38,826 nt of DNA from a virus, in the UHGV virus genome UHGV-0114133; one strand, 5' to 3'. Both the position numbers and the translations under genes were made by a program. Shown here one piece after another: positions 2,240 through 18,960 of the stretch. Position 1 is the first letter of the stretch. Every line of letters starts with the position of its first letter. The notes beneath the pieces are model-generated. The model made no database searches. It had not been told where the DNA came from and saw only the letters and a program-made list of their open reading frames with translations.

Positions 2240-2840
2240 ATCCACTGCGGTGAGTAGCCAGCTCACCGCGTGTGAATCCGGCTCATAACCACTGTAGCGA
2301 GTAGAACACCCTTCAGGTATGCACCCCAACCACTGTAGTGAGCAAACCCTCTGCCACGATATCAACTATCCACTGTAGTGAGTAAATTGGTGATTATCGG
2401 GGTCGCTATACACTGTAGTGAGTAAACAGGCGTTCACTGACTACAAACAACCACTATAGAGAGTGATGGAATGCCCCCTCCAGCGGATATCCACTATGGA
2501 GAGTAAATCTTCGCTGTTTTAAACGGATATCCACTCACTACAGTGGATAGAGGTCAAGTCAGCCAATTCTGCTCTTCACAGTGGATAGTCAACAATGAGG
2601 AGAGCGACGATAACCGCTGTAGAGAGTAGACTTAACATGGATACCCAGTGACCGCTAACCTCTCAGCCCTTGTTTTATCTATGTTTGCAACCACTAACAT
2701 TTACTTCGCGATTTGTGCGCACTGCCTACAGTGGTTATTCTTCGGTTTCTTTTACTCACTACAGTGGATATTGCATTTCCGATAAACAAAAAGGCTCACT
2801 ACAGTGGATAGTGAGCCTTTTTACTCTCTACAGTGGTTGG
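2240..2840. repeat. Iteron array downstream of repA (incA-like copy-control locus), about 14 copies in both orientations
   Basis: Repeats of CCACTGTAGTGAGTA and variants and their reverse complements (TACTCACTACAGTGG) at irregular spacing. Confidence 0.8.
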
Positions 2841-2841
2841 G

Positions 2842-3897
2842 CTATTTGCGAGCCTTTGCCTTGCGCAGCTCTTCGAGAATCGCCAGTTCTTCCTTGCTCA
2901 ACATGACCATTTCCCCGTCTTTTTCTTCAGGAGCAACATCGATAATGTCCTCCGGATCATCACCTGGCAAGATATCTTCTGGCTCTTCAGGCGTGGCCAT
3001 AGATGGCGGCAGTGCCGAACGTAACTTCGGCCGTCTATAGTGGATGACGAAGTAGACCGAGCTGCCGCGTTTCACTTCAGTGTAATCGAGATAGCCGATC
3101 TCTCGCAGCTGCTCCATCGCCTTCCTGACTGTCGCATTCTGGGTAATGGTGCGGCTGGTTAAGTTAAGTCTGGCGCGTAAGCGAGCCAATGAGATTGGCG
3201 CCGGGTCTGGTGGCAAACTTTCAATGAAGGTGTAGAGCGCCTGCGCGGATTCCTTTCTGGAGAGTTCGTTGATGGCCCGAAGTTGCAAAAGCACCTTTTT
3301 GTCGAACTGGTAAAGTTCGAAAATCTTAGGATCGGCCTTCAGTTCGACCGTGTCATTCTTGGTACTGTACTTTGCCGTCTGCACAAGGTGCGTAACGTAA
3401 TACTCTTCAGAGCCTTTGCTGCGGAATGAGATGGTGTTTGTGGCGATACGACTTAGAGAGCTGTCCAGGCGCTTACGTAACTTCGCGGACGATCTGGCTG
3501 TTGGTATGCCACAAAGTCTGACGAACTCGACGAACGGCAACGTGACGGTGTCACCAACAACCTTGTGCTTGGCGAACGCGTGGATGATGCCCACCCATGT
3601 TTTGAAATCGTTATCCATATCAAGACGAAGACCAGCAATCCTTATATCCTCGTACCCTTCGGCTTTGGCCAGAGACAGCTGTTTGAGTTCAGCGGAGGCG
3701 TCCATAGAGACCATTTGCCCCTTTCTACCCCTGGATGTCGATTTCAGCGTCGGAACGAAGAGACCAAGACGCATCAGAGCAACAGGCTGAACTGTGTTGT
3801 TGGTGTTAGGAACTAACGTAACAACTTCGCCGGTCTTTTTGTCTGTTTCGGAAAATGCTTCGCTTATCGCAATGTTTTTATTGTCGTTTACGCTCAT
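2842..3897 (-). CDS. repA: Plasmid replication initiator RepA (iteron-binding, P1/RepFIB-like)
   Basis: 351-aa ORF flanked on both sides by iteron arrays; acidic C-terminus; organisation typical of P1-type replicons. Confidence 0.8.
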
Positions 3898-3940
3898 TCC
3901 AAATGTCTCTTTTTATTCGACGGCTTGGGTGCCTTTACTG

Positions 3941-4059
3941 ATTACAGTGGATAGTAGCACCCATCACAGTGGTTATCCTACCGCCTACAGCGGTTTTTCT
4001 ACTCTCCATAGTGGTTGATTTACTCTCCATAGTGGTTGTTCTTCTCACTATAGTGGATA
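3941..4059. repeat. Origin-proximal iterons (incC-like), 6 copies immediately upstream of repA
   Basis: TACTCTCCATAGTGGTTG and variants x6, same family as 2240-2840. Confidence 0.8.
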
Positions 4060-4099
4060 TCGATAACCTCTAAAGCCATGTGGCACAACGGTTTGCAGG

Positions 4100-4185
4100 G
4101 GCCGGGGATCTCTTTGGGTCTTTGTGGTTCTCTTTGGTTCTAACAGGGATCTGAATTACTGGATCGGGCCTGTGTATAAAAATCA
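4100..4185. promoter_or_regulatory. Origin-like segment A: 3 GATC sites plus DnaA-box-like TGTGTATAA
   Basis: GATC at 4107, 4148, 4162; TGTGTATAA at 4172 is one mismatch from the TGTGGATAA consensus. Confidence 0.5.
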
Positions 4186-4338
4186 GATAATTACAAAATC
4201 AGGCATCACTCCCCTTCTGGGGATAATGTGTGATCGAAATAAACACGCCGCAACGCAAAATTTACAATATTTCCAAGAATATCAGCCATCTGCCGCAGAA
4301 AAACAGGCTCGGAGTTATCCAGTTAAAACATTGTCTCC

Positions 4339-4442
4339 TACTCACTACAGTGGATACCGACTACTCTCCAGAGAGGTTGTTTTGCTCTTCATAGCGGTTA
4401 TTATGCTCTCTACAGTGGTTATTTTGCTCCCTATAGTGGATA
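4339..4442. repeat. Second iteron cluster (5 copies)
   Basis: TACTCACTACAGTGGATA, TGCTCTCTACAGTGGTTATT and similar. Confidence 0.75.
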
Positions 4443-4482
4443 GTAACCCCTTCTCAAGCCAGTAACCGCAAGCGCTGGAGAC

Positions 4483-4555
4483 GATCGGGGATCTCTTTTG
4501 ATCTTCTGTAGGATCTCTCTGGGGATCTAAATATTGGATCGGGCCTGTGAATAAA
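4483..4555. promoter_or_regulatory. Origin-like segment B: 6 GATC sites in 58 bp plus DnaA-box-like TGTGAATAA
   Basis: GATC at 4483, 4490, 4500, 4512, 4524, 4537; TGTGAATAA at 4547; resembles Dam-methylation-controlled P1 oriR. Confidence 0.6.
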
Positions 4556-4639
4556 GTGAATAAGTAAACAGGCATTTGCAAACTCCGGTGCGCCTTATCC
4601 GTTATCGTTGCCCCGGACAAAATTATTTGAACAAGAATT

Positions 4640-5284
4640 ATGGATCTTAAACGCACGCGCTGGGTTCGCCGTCTTGAAGATGGCTCCTACACCATTGAAT
4701 CAAACACTAGTCTGAACAAACAGAAGTTGCTCTGCGACCTTTGCGGCATTGCTTCGAAATGCCCGATTAACGAAACCCGGCTTAAACTCCACGACGCCGG
4801 TGCGCATTTCCACCTAAACAGCTGCATACGTTACGTGCCACTACTAGCATTTCGTAAACCGATCATCGGATTGGATGCTCCCTACTTCAACACACTGCGC
4901 TCTGGTGTCACTTGGCGAGATCGTGTCGAACCTGGCAAACTCGTTTGTCTGGTTGAAGCTGATACCGGAAATATCATCCGGTTCGGGAGAGTTGATAAGG
5001 TCTACTCAGGCCCGGTGGATGAAATGCTGCGGAAACACAGCCGATTTAACCATCTCTGCATGGGCGGAGAGAAGATTGAGAAGGTTGGCGAAGTAATTCG
5101 CAAATCTTACGGACACTTTCTGAATGATAACAGCCTTCTGACAGCCATTTACATTCGCCATGTCGATCGGGAGTTCGACACGGAGTATCACAGTGCTGAA
5201 GAGTTGAATCTTGTAGACCCTCGTCCAAAAGCTGGGGTAATAGACATCAGCAGAGCGCGTCAGAAGCCCTCAGAGACGTTTTAA
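4640..5284 (+). CDS. hypothetical protein (214 aa)
   Basis: Long ORF with protein-like composition; no recognised motif. Confidence 0.55.
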   Translation: MDLKRTRWVRRLEDGSYTIESNTSLNKQKLLCDLCGIASKCPINETRLKLHDAGAHFHLNSCIRYVPLLAFRKPIIGLDAPYFNTLRSGVTWRDRVEPGKLVCLVEADTGNIIRFGRVDKVYSGPVDEMLRKHSRFNHLCMGGEKIEKVGEVIRKSYGHFLNDNSLLTAIYIRHVDREFDTEYHSAEELNLVDPRPKAGVIDISRARQKPSETF

Positions 5285-5680: not shown

Positions 5681-6766
5681 ATGACATTGCCATACGGGGT
5701 AATATCAGATCCCCATTATCATCGTTGGGATGCTTTTGCGACAACAAACGCTGACGGGCTTAACTCTCGGCTGGAGATCCAACTGGACGCTACGAAGGAG
5801 GCGGCCAAAGCGATGAAAGCTGCTGGCTGTAAGCACATGCTGGTAGCTGGTGATACCTTCCATGTTCGCGGTGCTATATCACCTTCCGTTCTGCATTTCG
5901 TGACCGAAACTTACGAGTGGATCATCAAAGAGTTGGGTCTCAAGGTGGTAATGCTGGCTGGCAACCACGACCTCGAAACCAACGATTCCGTATACAGCGC
6001 CAATGCAGCAGCCTCTCTGCGCTCAATCGGTGTGGAAATCGTCTGCGGCAAACGTCCTCATTCCATCAAAATGGGCGACGTAACCGTCCATCTGATTAGC
6101 TGGCGTAATAACCACGCAGAACTTATCAGCGATCTCAAAACGCTGCGTTCCGGGCTGGATGGTGACAACCATGATGTTGTTGTACATACCTCAATCAACA
6201 AAGCGATCCCCACCATGCCCGATGTCGGCATCGACGCACAGGAACTGAAAGATATCGGCTTCCGTTTATTGTTGTCCGGGCACTACCACAACCACAAAGA
6301 AGTGCTGCCTGGAGTGGTAAGTATCGGGGCGCTGACACACCAGAATTGGGGGGATGTTGGTTCACTGGCCGGCTTCATGATCGTCAAACCGGACGGCTCA
6401 TTCACTCACCACGAAACCTCGGCACCTAAATTCGTGAACCTTGAGGACGATGTAGATGACGATCAGATTCGCGGCAACTACGTGCGCTTCCGTGCCGTTG
6501 TTGAGAGCGATGAAGAAGGCATCAAACTTCAGAACGTCCTGAAAACAATGGGCGCGAAGGGTGTCGTCTGCAACTTCATTCGCAAGGCATCGATGATGGA
6601 AGGCGCTGCCAGTACTGCGGAGACCAGCAAAATTGACAGCCTGGGCGAGTCCGTTGCGGCGTACTGCAAGATCGTTCACGACACTGACGGTGGCTTCGAC
6701 CTGAGCAAGCTGGACATACTGTGTCAGGAGATCTTGACCGAAGCAGAGAGTGCGGAGGCTGTGTGA
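5681..6766 (+). CDS. SbcD/Mre11-like metallophosphoesterase nuclease
   Basis: Calcineurin-like phosphoesterase motifs: D-P-H-Y near N-terminus, GDTFH, GNHD, GHYH. Confidence 0.85.
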   Translation: MTLPYGVISDPHYHRWDAFATTNADGLNSRLEIQLDATKEAAKAMKAAGCKHMLVAGDTFHVRGAISPSVLHFVTETYEWIIKELGLKVVMLAGNHDLETNDSVYSANAAASLRSIGVEIVCGKRPHSIKMGDVTVHLISWRNNHAELISDLKTLRSGLDGDNHDVVVHTSINKAIPTMPDVGIDAQELKDIGFRLLLSGHYHNHKEVLPGVVSIGALTHQNWGDVGSLAGFMIVKPDGSFTHHETSAPKFVNLEDDVDDDQIRGNYVRFRAVVESDEEGIKLQNVLKTMGAKGVVCNFIRKASMMEGAASTAETSKIDSLGESVAAYCKIVHDTDGGFDLSKLDILCQEILTEAESAEAV

Positions 6767-6807
6767 GGCAACGTTATTATGGGAGCTTTCGAGAGTTTGC
6801 CATCGTG

Positions 6808-6999
6808 ATGAAAAAACTTCAAAAAGGCCAGACGGTTATGTTTCACAAGCCATACCCTTCAGGAGGAAATCCCGTAGCGTTTTATCTTGGAAGGCTAACC
6901 AGAAAAGGCTTATTGAATCGCAGATCCTTCCCCGCGCATACGGAGTTCAGATTGAAAGATGGTCAAAAGTTAACACACGATATCAGAGGTGTTATATGA
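6808..6999 (+). CDS. small hypothetical protein (63 aa)
   Basis: ORF between SbcD- and SbcC-like genes; stop overlaps SbcC ATG (ATGA); weak RBS. Confidence 0.3.
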   Translation: MKKLQKGQTVMFHKPYPSGGNPVAFYLGRLTRKGLLNRRSFPAHTEFRLKDGQKLTHDIRGVI

Positions 7000-8912
7000 A
7001 GTTTTTAAAGCTCCAGGTTGAAAATTTTATGGCAATCGCCAGCGCAGAAGTCGAGTTAGACCAGCGTGGACTGGTGCTGATCCAGGGTGTGAACAGTGGC
7101 GATACGTCTGCTGCCAGCAATGGCGCCGGGAAATCCACTCTGATGAATAGCTTAATGTGGTGTCTGTATGGTGAGACTGCACATGGCGTCAAAGGCGATG
7201 ACGTGCTGTCGACGGGCCATGAGAAGAACTGCCGTGTGATGGTTACAGTTGAAGACGAAGGTAAGAAATACGCGATCATTCGCCATCGTAAACACAAAGA
7301 GTTCAAGAACCGACTAATCGTCCGTGGTGAAGACGGTGATATGACCAAAGGCAAGGACACGCTGACACAGACGTTCGTAGAACGTCTGATTGGGGCATCG
7401 AAAGAGGTGTTCATGGCGTCCATCTACGCCAGTCAGGAAGCGATGCCAGATCTGCCCGGTATGTCCGACAAGAGCCTCAAAACCATCGTTGAAGAAGCTG
7501 CTGGCGTCGACCGATTGACGCGAGCCTATGCCATTGCCCGCGAGCGTGCTAATGCAGCTGCCGCACGTATGGACGTTACCAAATCCAAAATGGACGCCTG
7601 TCTCACGCTTATCGAGACTGCACAGTCAGAGATTGAGGCGGCCAAAGCGTCCTCTGAAAGCTGGGAGCGCGATCGCGGCGAGCGTCTGGACAAGGCCCGA
7701 GCCGATTTGGCTGGCGCGGAGGTAACACTGTCTGAAGTCGAGATGGAAATTCGCTCGCTGCCGGAACAGATCCGTGATACGGAAAACGCGATTGCTGGCG
7801 AACGCAGCAAGCTGGCCTCCAAAGAAGAGCATGACGCCAAACTGCTGAAGGTGCGCAGTGCTATTACTGAGATCCGCTCAAGCATCCGTACTTCAGAAGC
7901 GGCACAGAACGAGTCGATAAACCGTGCTCGCTCGTTTAAAACCAAAGCTGAAGAGGTCAGCACAAAGATCGGGGCACCCTGCATTACGTGCGGAAAGCCC
8001 TACTGCGAAGAAGATTTATCCACGGTGAAGGAGAGCTTCATTGAACAAGCGCGCAATGAGATCGGCCTTGCGCAGACATCAGCAGCGGCAGTGGCTCAAC
8101 ACAAGGCTCGTCTTGAGAAAGCGCTCGGTATCGAGTCTGCACTGGTCGCAGCCACACCCGACGTCTCAGAAATCATCTCCACAATAGAACGCCTGACCAA
8201 TGAGCTAAGTGCGCTGCGTCATCGCGAACGTGAAGTTGTGGCCGTCGAAGCGATGGTTGCGCGGGCGCGTACTGAAGTGAATCGCATCATGGCGGAAGCA
8301 AACCCATTTCTGGCCGTTATTAAGCGCCATGAAGACAACCTGGCTGCCAATAAATCTAATCATGCAGTACTTAAAAATGAGTTAAAGAGCATTCAGGAAC
8401 AGGCTCTGTTGCTGGAGAAGGCCCGCCAGGTTTACTCCCCAGCAGGCGTGCGTTCACACATCCTGACCTCCGTTACGCCTTTCCTGAACATCAGGACTGC
8501 GGAGTATCTCAACACGCTGTCGGACGGCAATATCGTTGCCGAATGGTCGACAATGGAGACAACGAAGAAAGGTGAGTATCGCGACAAATTCAATATCAGC
8601 GTAATCAAAACAGGCTCCAGCAAATCCTTCCAGACTTTGTCTGGTGGTGAGAAGCGTAAGGTACGTATTGCGTGCTCTCTGGCTTTGCAGGATCTGGTTG
8701 CCAGTCGCGCCAGTAAGAATATCGAGCTATTTATCGGTGATGAAATTGACGACGCGCTCGACACAGCCGGTCTGGAGCGTCTCATGGGGATTCTGGAAGC
8801 CAAAGCGCGTGAACGTGGCACAGTGATGATCATCTCCCACAAAGAGATGAAATCGTGGTTCCGGGAAATTATCACTGTCGAAGTTAAAGAGGGGCGCAGC
8901 TATGTCGTTTAA
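6996..8912 (+). CDS. SbcC/Rad50-like SMC-type ATPase
   Basis: Walker A GAGKST, central coiled coil with CxxC zinc hook (CITCGKPYC), signature LSGGEKRKV, Walker B FIGDEIDDALD; RBS before ATG at 6996; track extension from 6750 rejected. Confidence 0.85.
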   Translation: MKFLKLQVENFMAIASAEVELDQRGLVLIQGVNSGDTSAASNGAGKSTLMNSLMWCLYGETAHGVKGDDVLSTGHEKNCRVMVTVEDEGKKYAIIRHRKHKEFKNRLIVRGEDGDMTKGKDTLTQTFVERLIGASKEVFMASIYASQEAMPDLPGMSDKSLKTIVEEAAGVDRLTRAYAIARERANAAAARMDVTKSKMDACLTLIETAQSEIEAAKASSESWERDRGERLDKARADLAGAEVTLSEVEMEIRSLPEQIRDTENAIAGERSKLASKEEHDAKLLKVRSAITEIRSSIRTSEAAQNESINRARSFKTKAEEVSTKIGAPCITCGKPYCEEDLSTVKESFIEQARNEIGLAQTSAAAVAQHKARLEKALGIESALVAATPDVSEIISTIERLTNELSALRHREREVVAVEAMVARARTEVNRIMAEANPFLAVIKRHEDNLAANKSNHAVLKNELKSIQEQALLLEKARQVYSPAGVRSHILTSVTPFLNIRTAEYLNTLSDGNIVAEWSTMETTKKGEYRDKFNISVIKTGSSKSFQTLSGGEKRKVRIACSLALQDLVASRASKNIELFIGDEIDDALDTAGLERLMGILEAKARERGTVMIISHKEMKSWFREIITVEVKEGRSYVV

Positions 8913-11231: not shown

Positions 11232-12110
11232 ATGAAATTTACGAAACTGACCGATCATCTGAAACTTGCCGCAGACAAACTCGTGGGGTTTAAACCAGAG
11301 CCTTACGAGTTGAATCCCGGTTTCGGCAAGACAACGGAAAGCATCTACCTGATGGTTGACCAGTTCCACACACTGTTTCAGCACCCACGCCGTGCCATTC
11401 CAGATCCGGCATTACTGCGTCTGCGTGCCAAGCTGATCCACGAAGAAGCAGTTACCGAGGGCATCCCGGCAGCCAAAAATGGGGATATGACGGCACTGCT
11501 GGACGCGATGGCTGACTTCCTTTACGTGGGCGTCGGCACAATGGTGGCCATCAAAGGCGGCATCTCGACGGGCATGAGTTACTACACCCAAGAGCAGAGT
11601 GTTGATCGCTTCATCCACACCATCATGGTTCCGGGCAACACGGTCTTTGACGATATGGCTATCCCGTTTGAAGAAGCAAAAGAAGCTGCATTAATGCTGA
11701 ATGCGCTGGCTGACAAACTTGAAGCGAAGCCGATAAGCGATTCCGAATTGGTGCAGGAGCTGCGCCGCGTGATGAACAAAATCTACGTTGCCTGCATGAT
11801 GACCTACCGTCTGGCTGATTTTCTCGGAATCGATATTGTTGAGCTGGTGGCAGAAATCCACCGTTCCAACATGACCAAGCTGTGGCCGGCTGACGCCGAA
11901 GAGCGTCGTGTGGCGGTAGAGAATTGCAAATATGACAAGGAAGACCTGGGCTTCCGCCATGCTGAAGGGACTGACATGATGATCGGTTTCAGGGTTTCTG
12001 ATGGCAAGATCCTCAAATCTCCCACCTACAGCGATGTGGATCTGACTTGCTTTGTTGAGAAGGCGAAGTCCTCATCTCTTTACGAGATGGTAAAAAATAA
12101 TTGTAAGTGA
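11232..12110 (+). CDS. putative MazG-like nucleoside triphosphate pyrophosphohydrolase
   Basis: Two helical segments with E-x-x-E / acidic-Leu-x-D patterns (EEAVTEG...TALLDAMADFLYV; ELVQELRRVMNKIY...LADFLGID) resembling tandem MazG repeats; assignment by eye only. Confidence 0.45.
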   Translation: MKFTKLTDHLKLAADKLVGFKPEPYELNPGFGKTTESIYLMVDQFHTLFQHPRRAIPDPALLRLRAKLIHEEAVTEGIPAAKNGDMTALLDAMADFLYVGVGTMVAIKGGISTGMSYYTQEQSVDRFIHTIMVPGNTVFDDMAIPFEEAKEAALMLNALADKLEAKPISDSELVQELRRVMNKIYVACMMTYRLADFLGIDIVELVAEIHRSNMTKLWPADAEERRVAVENCKYDKEDLGFRHAEGTDMMIGFRVSDGKILKSPTYSDVDLTCFVEKAKSSSLYEMVKNNCK

Positions 12111-18366: not shown

Positions 18367-18960
18367 ATGATCGCAGCCGAAAAAATCAAAAAGCGAGAGC
18401 GTGATGCCTCTCTTCGCGACCTTTGGCGCACACCGCAGTGGTTGTTTGTCGCCATCCAACGTTACATAGGCGTAAAGTTCGATGTGGACGTCGCCTGCAA
18501 CAAAGATAATGCTCTCCTGCCGAACTTTATCGGTGTTGAGCGTGATGCGCTCAAGTGCAGTTGGGGAGAACCTGGCACTGTGGCGTTCCTTAACCCGCCC
18601 TACTCCAAAATCACCCCCTGGATAGATGCAGCCATTCGCGAGCAGGCGCGTGGAGTGACGACGGTCATGCTGATACCACAATCCCTCGATACGCAGTGGT
18701 ACGAGCGTGCGGCTGAATGCGCCAACGAAACCGTCATCTTGTCTGGCGGCCGCGTGGCGTTCGTTGAGCCGGATGTTGAACTTGGGCTGGTGGAGGTGAA
18801 CATCAACCCTGGTGGCAGCATGTTGCTTATCTTCCGTGGCTACTGTCAGGAAGCTGGGCACACCATCAGCAAGATACCGCTGGCGGTGATGAAAAAGCTG
18901 GGTGGTTATGACCCTGCCAATGTTGTCAGGAAGAAGAGACCACGTAAAAAGGCAGCGTAA
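18367..18960 (+). CDS. dam: Phage-type DNA N6-adenine methyltransferase (Dam family)
   Basis: DLWRTPQWLF N-terminal motif, NPPYS catalytic motif; GATC cluster at the replication origin suggests the target. Confidence 0.8.
   Translation: MIAAEKIKKRERDASLRDLWRTPQWLFVAIQRYIGVKFDVDVACNKDNALLPNFIGVERDALKCSWGEPGTVAFLNPPYSKITPWIDAAIREQARGVTTVMLIPQSLDTQWYERAAECANETVILSGGRVAFVEPDVELGLVEVNINPGGSMLLIFRGYCQEAGHTISKIPLAVMKKLGGYDPANVVRKKRPRKKAA

Follow-up and report, generated by a model that had tools for sequence, protein, structure and literature searches.

Why does a replicon with a single initiator gene carry two origin-like units upstream of it, and which of the two fires? The question is raised by the intergenic region at 3898-4639 of the UHGV virus genome UHGV-0114133, between the divergent repA (minus strand) and open reading frame (ORF) 4640 (plus strand). 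The whole stretch of DNA analysed, 38,826 nt long, is referred to here as the window. A sequence-only reading of it had proposed a tandem duplication of an origin module, giving modules A (here the one proximal to repA) and B (the distal one) upstream of repA.

Comparison of sequences showed that the region contains the origin and the control elements of an iteron replicon of the P1/RepFIB type, on an SSU5/pHCM2/pMT1-like phage-plasmid. This assignment was based on the Rep3 domains of RepA, on the DNA identity of 91% that the replicon region shares with Salmonella phage SSU5 and with the S. Typhi CT18 plasmid pHCM2, and on the amino acid identity of RepA to the P1 RepA (46%) and to the RepFIB RepA of IncF plasmids (60-63%). 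The two units appeared to be the products of an old duplication, and we lean towards module B as the principal firing origin.

Two origin units upstream of repA

The initiator gene and the elements of the two modules were as follows.

2842-3897, minus strand: repA, iteron-binding initiator of 351 amino acids (Rep3_N, PHROG 775), its function predicted from the sequence
3938-4062, plus strand: module A iterons, six copies (pattern matches), 41 bp upstream of the repA ATG
4063-4102, no strand: spacer between the iterons and heptamers of module A, GC 0.53, aligning with the spacer of about 40 bp between the Dam sites and incC of P1
4103-4166, no strand: module A heptamer array, GGGATCT, GGGTCTT, GGTTCTC, GGTTCTA, GGGATCT and TGGATCG (three GATC and three Dam-less units)
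4171-4179, minus strand: module A DnaA-box-like site TGTGTATAA (TTATACACA), fitting TTATNCACA
4186-4312, no strand: inter-module spacer, poorly conserved (identity to Cyrano 0.59) and probably non-coding
4315-4323, plus strand: module B inner DnaA-box-like site TTATCCAGT, two mismatches to TTATCCACA, on the repA side of the B iterons
4341-4445, plus strand: module B iterons, five copies (pattern matches)
4446-4482, no strand: module B spacer, GC 0.59
4483-4541, no strand: module B heptamer array, six GATC in 58 bp, aligning with the five annotated Dam sites of P1 oriR
4546-4563, minus strand: module B tandem DnaA-box-like sites, TGTGAATAA (4546-4554, fitting TTATNCACA) and, directly after it, AGTGAATAA (4555-4563)

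The iteron cores of module A were at 3943, 3965, 3986, 4007, 4028 and 4049, with a spacing of 21-22 bp, and those of module B at 4346, 4369, 4390, 4411 and 4432. Module A had GATC sites at 4107, 4148 and 4162, and module B at 4483, 4490, 4500, 4512, 4524 and 4537. The iterons (six and five), the GATC sites (three, and six in 58 bp) and the sequences TGTGTATAA and TGTGAATAA listed by the sequence-only reading were thus all in place. The two modules are direct repeats with the same element order, and both lie upstream of the minus-strand repA, as that reading had also claimed. It had not mentioned the site TTATCCAGT at 4315-4323, the AGTGAATAA that follows TGTGAATAA, or an iteron field downstream of repA at 2240-2838.

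Alignment of module A with module B gave 77% identity over about 300 columns, as expected from the proposed duplication. The pieces returned by blastn covered the iterons (E 1e-10) and GGATCGGGCCTGTG-ATAAA (E 2e-8). The similarity extended from the iterons to about 30 bp past the DnaA box (AATCAGGCAT / AAACAGGCAT). This indicated a repeated unit of about 240-270 bp, near the size of the annotated P1 oriR (242 bp). We interpreted modules A and B, from their sequences, to be true paralogues that arose by tandem direct duplication.

The curated P1 record (AF234172) has only one such unit, as the sequence-only reading had stated. It consists of a tandem DnaA site of 18 bp, then five Dam sites in a stretch of about 55 bp and, across a gap of about 40 bp, five incC iterons that hold the repA promoter (PrepA); repA and then nine incA iterons follow. 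When P1 oriR, classic RepFIB, a one-module Pantoea replicon and modules A and B of the window were aligned in the same orientation, all were colinear, and sequence similarity was recognisable in the part that contains the DnaA boxes, the heptamers and the spacer. By this element-by-element colinearity, both modules of the window are complete units of the P1 oriR type.

The whole 38,826-nt window was searched for the iteron pattern CTCNYHAYAGYGGWT, two mismatches at most being allowed. It gave 33 matches against 5.6 expected, a number reached by none of 100 shuffles, and 27 of the 33 were within 2240-4441. For the GATC sites, the 152 in the window were placed at random. Six in 58 bp, as in module B, had a probability of about 1e-4. 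Chance was therefore excluded as the origin of module B and of the iterons. Three in 60 bp, as in module A, had a probability of about 0.94 and were unremarkable alone; the heptamer cluster of module A is credible only because it is homologous to that of module B (and to that of P1). The pattern TTATNCACA was matched four times in the whole window, against about 1.2 expected.

The sole other site in the window with three GATC in about 60 bp, at 11981-12039, was compatible with chance. The presence of a hidden gene or RNA between the modules was also considered and rejected, as the spacer is poorly conserved and no Rfam family was found in it. Two ORFs, at 4124-4465 and 4345-4656, run across iterons.

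Distribution and age of the double unit

The sequence-only reading had presented the two units as an oddity of this element. This did not hold. Two modules were found at the same distances from the repA ATG in SSU5, pHCM2, Y. pestis pMT1 and Escherichia phage Cyrano. They were also found in a 467-kb Rahnella plasmid and in Cronobacter pCTU1, neither of which has the phage-plasmid genes next to the replicon. In 333 plasmids, 80% or more of the A+B region was present.

A scan of one genome per species (GTDB representatives) returned 80 RepA-encoding loci. About 47 of them had two upstream iteron arrays, with a GATC cluster and a DnaA box after the distal one. These came from Kluyvera, Buttiauxella, Yersinia, Franconibacter, Erwinia, Pantoea and Rahnella, and further from Phytobacter, Entomohabitans, Scandinavium, Pseudescherichia, Cedecea and Tolumonas. 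The sequence-only reading had named, as an outcome that would refute it, that related replicons all share the arrangement and need both modules; the comparison bore out the first half of this, the two-module layout as the standard architecture.

In the RepA tree, the two-module loci formed one clade, to which SSU5, pHCM2, pMT1 and many Pantoea, Erwinia and Rahnella plasmids belong. The sister groups have one module: a Pantoea group, Xenorhabdus/Photorhabdus, classic RepFIB, IncFIB(K), SSU5-like elements with a different Rep, and P1. In a neighbour-joining tree of the heptamer and DnaA-box segments, the A copies were mostly apart from the B copies. The two trees together suggested that the duplication occurred once, before these lineages split. 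By these comparisons, the two-module layout is an old, conserved standard architecture of this RepA clade, and the two units come from one old tandem duplication at its base, both having been kept since. A recent or element-specific duplication was excluded by the comparative survey and by both trees.

It was hardly conceivable that the repeat arose recently as a neutral accident, or through faulty assembly, and that its second copy has no function. Beyond the bare presence of a repeat nothing spoke for this, whereas the copies are only 77% identical, and orthologous A and B copies occur in more than 10 genera and in hundreds of independent assemblies. Among 840 plasmid matches, no natural one-module variant was found in close relatives, the coverage of the A+B region falling from 97% to 34% or less. 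The species representatives yielded just two informative loci of this sort, L058 and L059, each with one of the modules reduced.

Two loci from the species scan differed in the size of their arrays. In Pantoea conspicua (L041), the module A heptamers, about 189-240 nt upstream of repA, contained an internal duplication of the first unit of about 24 bp (ggGATCtataggggcc... twice). Heptamer arrays evidently expand through small tandem duplications, to judge from this locus. A Tolumonas metagenome-assembled genome (MAG; L049) had, within 1-860 nt upstream of repA, more than 10 iteron cores over about 750 bp, and the GATC cluster came after them at 802-847. The design may have been expanded further in this locus.

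Systems of this kind are well known, and the sequencing of pMT1 and pHCM2 made the sequences public. The searchable literature yielded no description either of the double oriR unit or of the consistent difference in Dam sites between A and B; the original pMT1 papers were outside its reach, and an earlier description is possible.

Differences between modules A and B

Module B was the more constant of the two in its Dam sites. It contained five to seven GATC in all of the 47 scored loci, and in all of them the second GATC was 10-11 bp after the first heptamer. With up to one mismatch, its outer DnaA box was found in 47 of 47 loci, and an inner, oppositely oriented box in 32 of 47, compared with 1.5% of shuffled controls. 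Counted by lineage, five to seven closely spaced GATC and flanking DnaA boxes were kept in 47 of 48. The inner and outer boxes would leave module B bracketed by DnaA boxes. In the P1 alignment, DnaA-box-like sequences are likewise present on the repA side of the P1 iterons.

The iterons of module A were also kept throughout, starting 41-46 bp from the ATG in all lineages. Its second heptamer was without a GATC in every lineage that keeps the array (GGGTCT, GGTTCT, GGAACT, GGACCT and others). About nine scored loci had no more than one GATC in module A, and in about 11 of the 47 no heptamer array was recognisable. The array losses included Cronobacter, Franconibacter, Phytobacter and the eroded replicon of an insect-symbiont Pantoea. 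In this symbiont, Candidatus Pantoea bathycoeliae (L058), module A was eroded and module B intact.

In about 500 SSU5-like phage-plasmids of Klebsiella and E. coli, the Rep differs (48-50% identity), as do the iterons, and there is only one module. The only part that they have in common with the window is 4482-4637, which spans the heptamers and DnaA boxes of B and the ORF 4640 leader (the loci tied to this boundary were L004, L007 and L009). This hinted that the one working origin of that backbone makes use of the B-equivalent segment. An exchange of the Rep-plus-iteron cassette appears to have taken place, with its boundary at the start of the GATC cluster. The arrangement suggests that such cassettes swap while the phage backbone retains the host-factor part of the origin.

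Assignment of roles to the two modules

The constant GATC array and DnaA boxes of module B, the losses of the A array, the eroded module A in L058, and the B segment shared by the 500 or so phage-plasmids all pointed to B. We therefore lean, with slightly better than even confidence, towards B as the principal firing origin and A as mainly a repA operator and an extra iteron array for titration or handcuffing. The A iterons are probably the operator, because they are in the same position as the P1 incC iterons with PrepA inside, 41-46 bp from the ATG in all lineages. The analysis showed homology, colinearity with P1 oriR and the pattern of conservation across the clade, whereas the choice of the firing module, the dependence on Dam and SeqA, the handcuffing and the placement of the promoter were inferred.

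In the proposed mechanism, RepA would bind the 21-22-bp iterons in three arrays, namely 15 sites downstream of repA and the two upstream arrays. Each upstream array would serve as the iteron part of a P1-oriR-like unit, with a GC-rich spacer of about 40 bp, 7-bp Dam-site repeats and DnaA boxes. RepA and DnaA would open the methylated heptamers of the distal unit B, whose array is presumed to be both the Dam/SeqA target and the DNA-opening region. After firing, SeqA would sequester the hemimethylated B array, as in P1. Unit A, which is proximal to repA and overlies its promoter region, would mainly be an autoregulatory operator, and as an extra iteron array it would take part in titration and in handcuffing with B and the downstream field. 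The conserved, Dam-poor heptamers and the DnaA box of A could confer an auxiliary origin, timing or regulatory activity.

Several observations weigh against this assignment of roles. The inner B site of the window itself, TTATCCAGT, carries two mismatches. About 37 of the 47 loci retain 3-5 GATC in module A, which in most lineages is not a relic in decay. A promoter scan gave five sites against 3.0 +/- 1.8 expected, and thus no usable support for a repA promoter. The searchable literature yielded no description or published dissection of the origin structure of pMT1, pHCM2 or SSU5, nor any experiment on this replicon.

Two weak sites from the promoter scan, the count of which was not above that of shuffles, may be recorded here. 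A promoter-like site at 4074..4047 (minus strand) overlaps the outermost A iteron and faces repA, and a sigma-70-like site at 4409-4437 (plus strand) is inside the B iterons and faces ORF 4640.

Further points against the preferred assignment came from the conservation of module A. In the SSU5 group, the A iterons were 0.86-0.90 identical and the B iterons 0.84-0.96. The A heptamers were 0.86-0.94 identical in SSU5, pMT1 and Cyrano, compared with 0.59-0.88 for the inter-module spacer. The A DnaA box was conserved at 0.95-1.00 in this group, and Cyrano has a perfect TGTGGATAA. Against Cyrano alone, the values were 0.86 for the A heptamers, 0.95 for the A DnaA box and 0.59 for the spacer, the elements on either side of the spacer being at 0.84-0.95. 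The conservation of the heptamers and DnaA box indicated that module A is no decaying relic in the SSU5 group.

This constraint on both modules would also be expected if both were working origins, redundant or condition-dependent, with B tightly sequestered by SeqA and A less so, in a two-tier control or as a back-up. Every element class of P1 oriR is kept in both modules, either module has been lost in nature (A in about 11 loci, B in one, L059), and the Dam-less second heptamer of A in every lineage looks like differentiation rather than decay. The losses are strongly asymmetric, however, about 11 against one, and module A of the window has no inner DnaA box. Moreover, the established model of iteron plasmids predicts handcuffing between two active origins of this type at a distance of 375-400 bp. 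We consider two working origins unlikely, though with an appreciable chance.

A related and slightly less probable view, which we put forward tentatively, is that A and B are subfunctionalised paralogues kept for two-tier initiation control. Initiation would take place at the Dam-rich distal origin, with SeqA sequestering it afterwards, while the Dam-poor proximal copy, over the repA promoter and with no GATC in its second heptamer ever since the duplication, would escape or shorten sequestration. The proximal copy would in this way time the resynthesis of RepA, or back up the origin in hosts or states with low Dam. If true, this would be a design principle for low-copy replicons such as chromid-like megaplasmids and phage-plasmids; no such description was found for P1, F or RepFIB.

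The position of the modules also counted against B as the principal origin, since module A is in the ancestral origin position adjoining repA, as in P1 and the one-module relatives. In the second replicon of a Buttiauxella MAG (L059), module A was intact and module B was cut to one iteron and three widely spaced GATC. In this locus, module A alone may suffice.

These two observations raised the converse assignment, that A is the real origin and B a regulatory copy, acting as an iteron sink or handcuffing partner, a DnaA/SeqA-binding insulator or a regulator of ORF 4640. The position of A matches that of the single origin of P1, of the Pantoea one-module group and of the Photorhabdus relatives, L059 retains A with most of B gone, and the promoter-like site inside the B iterons faces ORF 4640. 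On the other hand, a pure iteron sink has no need of five to seven phased GATC (47 of 47 loci) and flanking DnaA boxes (in 32-47 of 47), and the A heptamers are gone in about 11 lineages with otherwise intact replicons. Non-phage relatives have the B module without ORF 4640 next to it, and an incA-like control array is already present downstream of repA. We judged this assignment improbable, and kept B as the favoured principal origin.

The downstream iteron field

2240-2838, both orientations: iteron field resembling P1 incA, 15 iteron-like sites (pattern matches), directly after the repA stop codon

The sites at 2240-2503 and the one at 2612 form a minus-strand group, and the remaining sites are on the plus strand. 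The field was also found in SSU5, pHCM2, pMT1 and Cyrano. By analogy, it is the counterpart of P1 incA and of RepFIB iterons E-K. The latter exert control from downstream in a manner consistent with handcuffing (PMC11983097).

The sequence-only reading had asked whether the extra upstream iterons act in copy control. The question left out this array of 15 incA-like sites, and the fact that both modules conserve DnaA boxes and heptamers in addition to iterons.

A match of Rfam family RefA9 at 2758-2820 (E 0.16, below the gathering score) was taken as chance. An iteron-like site with two mismatches, CCGTCTATAGTGGAT, was present at 3031-3045, inside the repA coding sequence, and was equally placed in SSU5, pMT1, Cyrano and the Rahnella plasmid. 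It could reflect a coding constraint or an internal RepA site.

The element and the neighbouring genes

RepA of the window matched Pfam Rep3_N (E 2.4e-11) and PHROG 775 (E 1.6e-146). The match to Rep3_C (E 4.9e-4, 20.7 bits) was slightly below the gathering cut-off of 21.1 bits. The replicon region was 88-90% identical in DNA to pMT1 and 81% to Cyrano; with E. coli plasmids of about 106-114 kb, the identity reached 99.8%. The match to SSU5, pHCM2 and pMT1 covered 2.5 kb, repA and both modules, at 88-92%. The replicon type of the relatives of the window in PLSDB was IncFIB. The gene neighbourhood was that of the SSU5/pHCM2/pMT1 type, with small upstream ORFs, repA, an ORF 4640 homologue and SbcCD-like genes. 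Identity and gene order alike mark the window as a phage-plasmid of this type.

4640-5284, plus strand: divergent flanking ORF, PHROG 2105, function not known; ASCH domain according to the annotation of phage Cyrano

ORF 4640 was absent beside the two-module replicon in the Rahnella and Cronobacter plasmids, and is a neighbour outside the replicon. After it, at 5681-8912, are an SbcD-like gene (Metallophos) and an SbcC-like gene (AAA_23/SMC_N), likewise in SSU5 and Cyrano. ORF 174-1013, at the window's left end, encodes an integrase core (rve) and HTH_21, domains typical of an IS3-family transposase; the distance between it and the downstream iteron field is about 1.2 kb.

The Dam methyltransferase gene

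18367-18960, plus strand: phage-type Dam-family DNA adenine methyltransferase (PF05869, E 4.4e-37; PHROG 111, E 3e-63), sequence specificity putative

The sequence-only reading had tied the GATC density of the origin to this gene. A Dam-family gene is indeed present at 18367, and its product possibly contributes to methylation of the origin. A special dependence was unsupported, as the GATC clusters are shared by the non-phage megaplasmid relatives. In enterobacteria, the host cell itself provides a Dam enzyme. Abeles and Austin in 1987, Abeles et al. in 1993, and Gammie and Crosa in 1991 reportedly described P1 oriR and the RepFIB-type REPI replicon as dependent on Dam.

Implications

Elements of medical relevance are maintained by the replicon: pMT1 in Y. 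pestis, pHCM2 in S. Typhi, the SSU5-like phage-plasmids of E. coli and Enterobacter that bear resistance genes, and plasmids of Cronobacter and Pantoea. The paired P1-like units and the downstream field show which segments to include in mini-replicons, in curing cassettes based on incompatibility and in replicon typing. The pair also offers a natural system in which to follow the partition of a duplicated origin between firing and control. Mini-replicons with A only or B only would be a cheap and direct test. No new kind of replication mechanism was revealed.

Comparison with P1, RepFIB and other systems

The replicon of the window resembles that of P1 in having a homologous Rep3-family RepA (46% amino acid identity), and both are phage-plasmid replicons. 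Both have, in this order, tandem DnaA boxes, five to six GATC heptamers, a spacer of about 40 bp, five to six iterons at 21-22 bp, repA and downstream iterons, with direct similarity in the heptamer and DnaA-box segment. Like module B, incC has five iterons, and the 18-bp tandem DnaA site of P1 is at the corresponding end. P1 differs in its single origin unit, where the window has two in tandem, and in its iteron sequence. The downstream field of the window has 15 sites in both orientations, compared with nine in P1. In the P1 alignment, DnaA boxes are seen in the repA-proximal leader, whereas the proximal unit of the window has none there.

RepFIB (P307, F, pO157 and REPI of pColV-K30) has the closest experimentally studied RepA, with 60-63% amino acid identity. 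It has a cluster of five GATC (six within 93 bp) and then TGTGGATAA. Upstream of repA, classic RepFIB has a single iteron array and a single GATC/DnaA unit, unlike the window; its iteron sequence is different, and it is placed in a sister clade of the RepA tree. In RepFIB too, the upstream iterons are associated with the origin, the downstream iterons serve control and handcuffing, and there is a DnaA site (PMC11983097).

SSU5, pHCM2 and pMT1 have the same replicon, at 88-92% DNA identity and with identical element positions. They show only point differences, such as two extra GATC within their A iterons.

Extra initiator sites beside a minimal origin are known from other systems. In RK2 oriV, with its 5+3+1 iterons, an extra iteron group beside the minimal origin affects copy number through titration and handcuffing. 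In V. cholerae chromosome II, with ori2-min and ori2-inc, the extra initiator sites likewise modulate copy number by titration and handcuffing, and Dam sites link initiation to SeqA sequestration (PMC6090056). The extra groups in these two systems, in contrast to the second unit of the window, are bare initiator sites without DnaA boxes and a heptamer array of their own, and their initiators are unrelated or only distantly related to RepA of the window.

The window thus has most of the traits typical of P1 and RepFIB: a Rep3 initiator, upstream iterons, GATC heptamers, outer DnaA boxes (predicted) and downstream iterons. It departs from them in one, the single origin unit upstream of repA, in place of which it has two.

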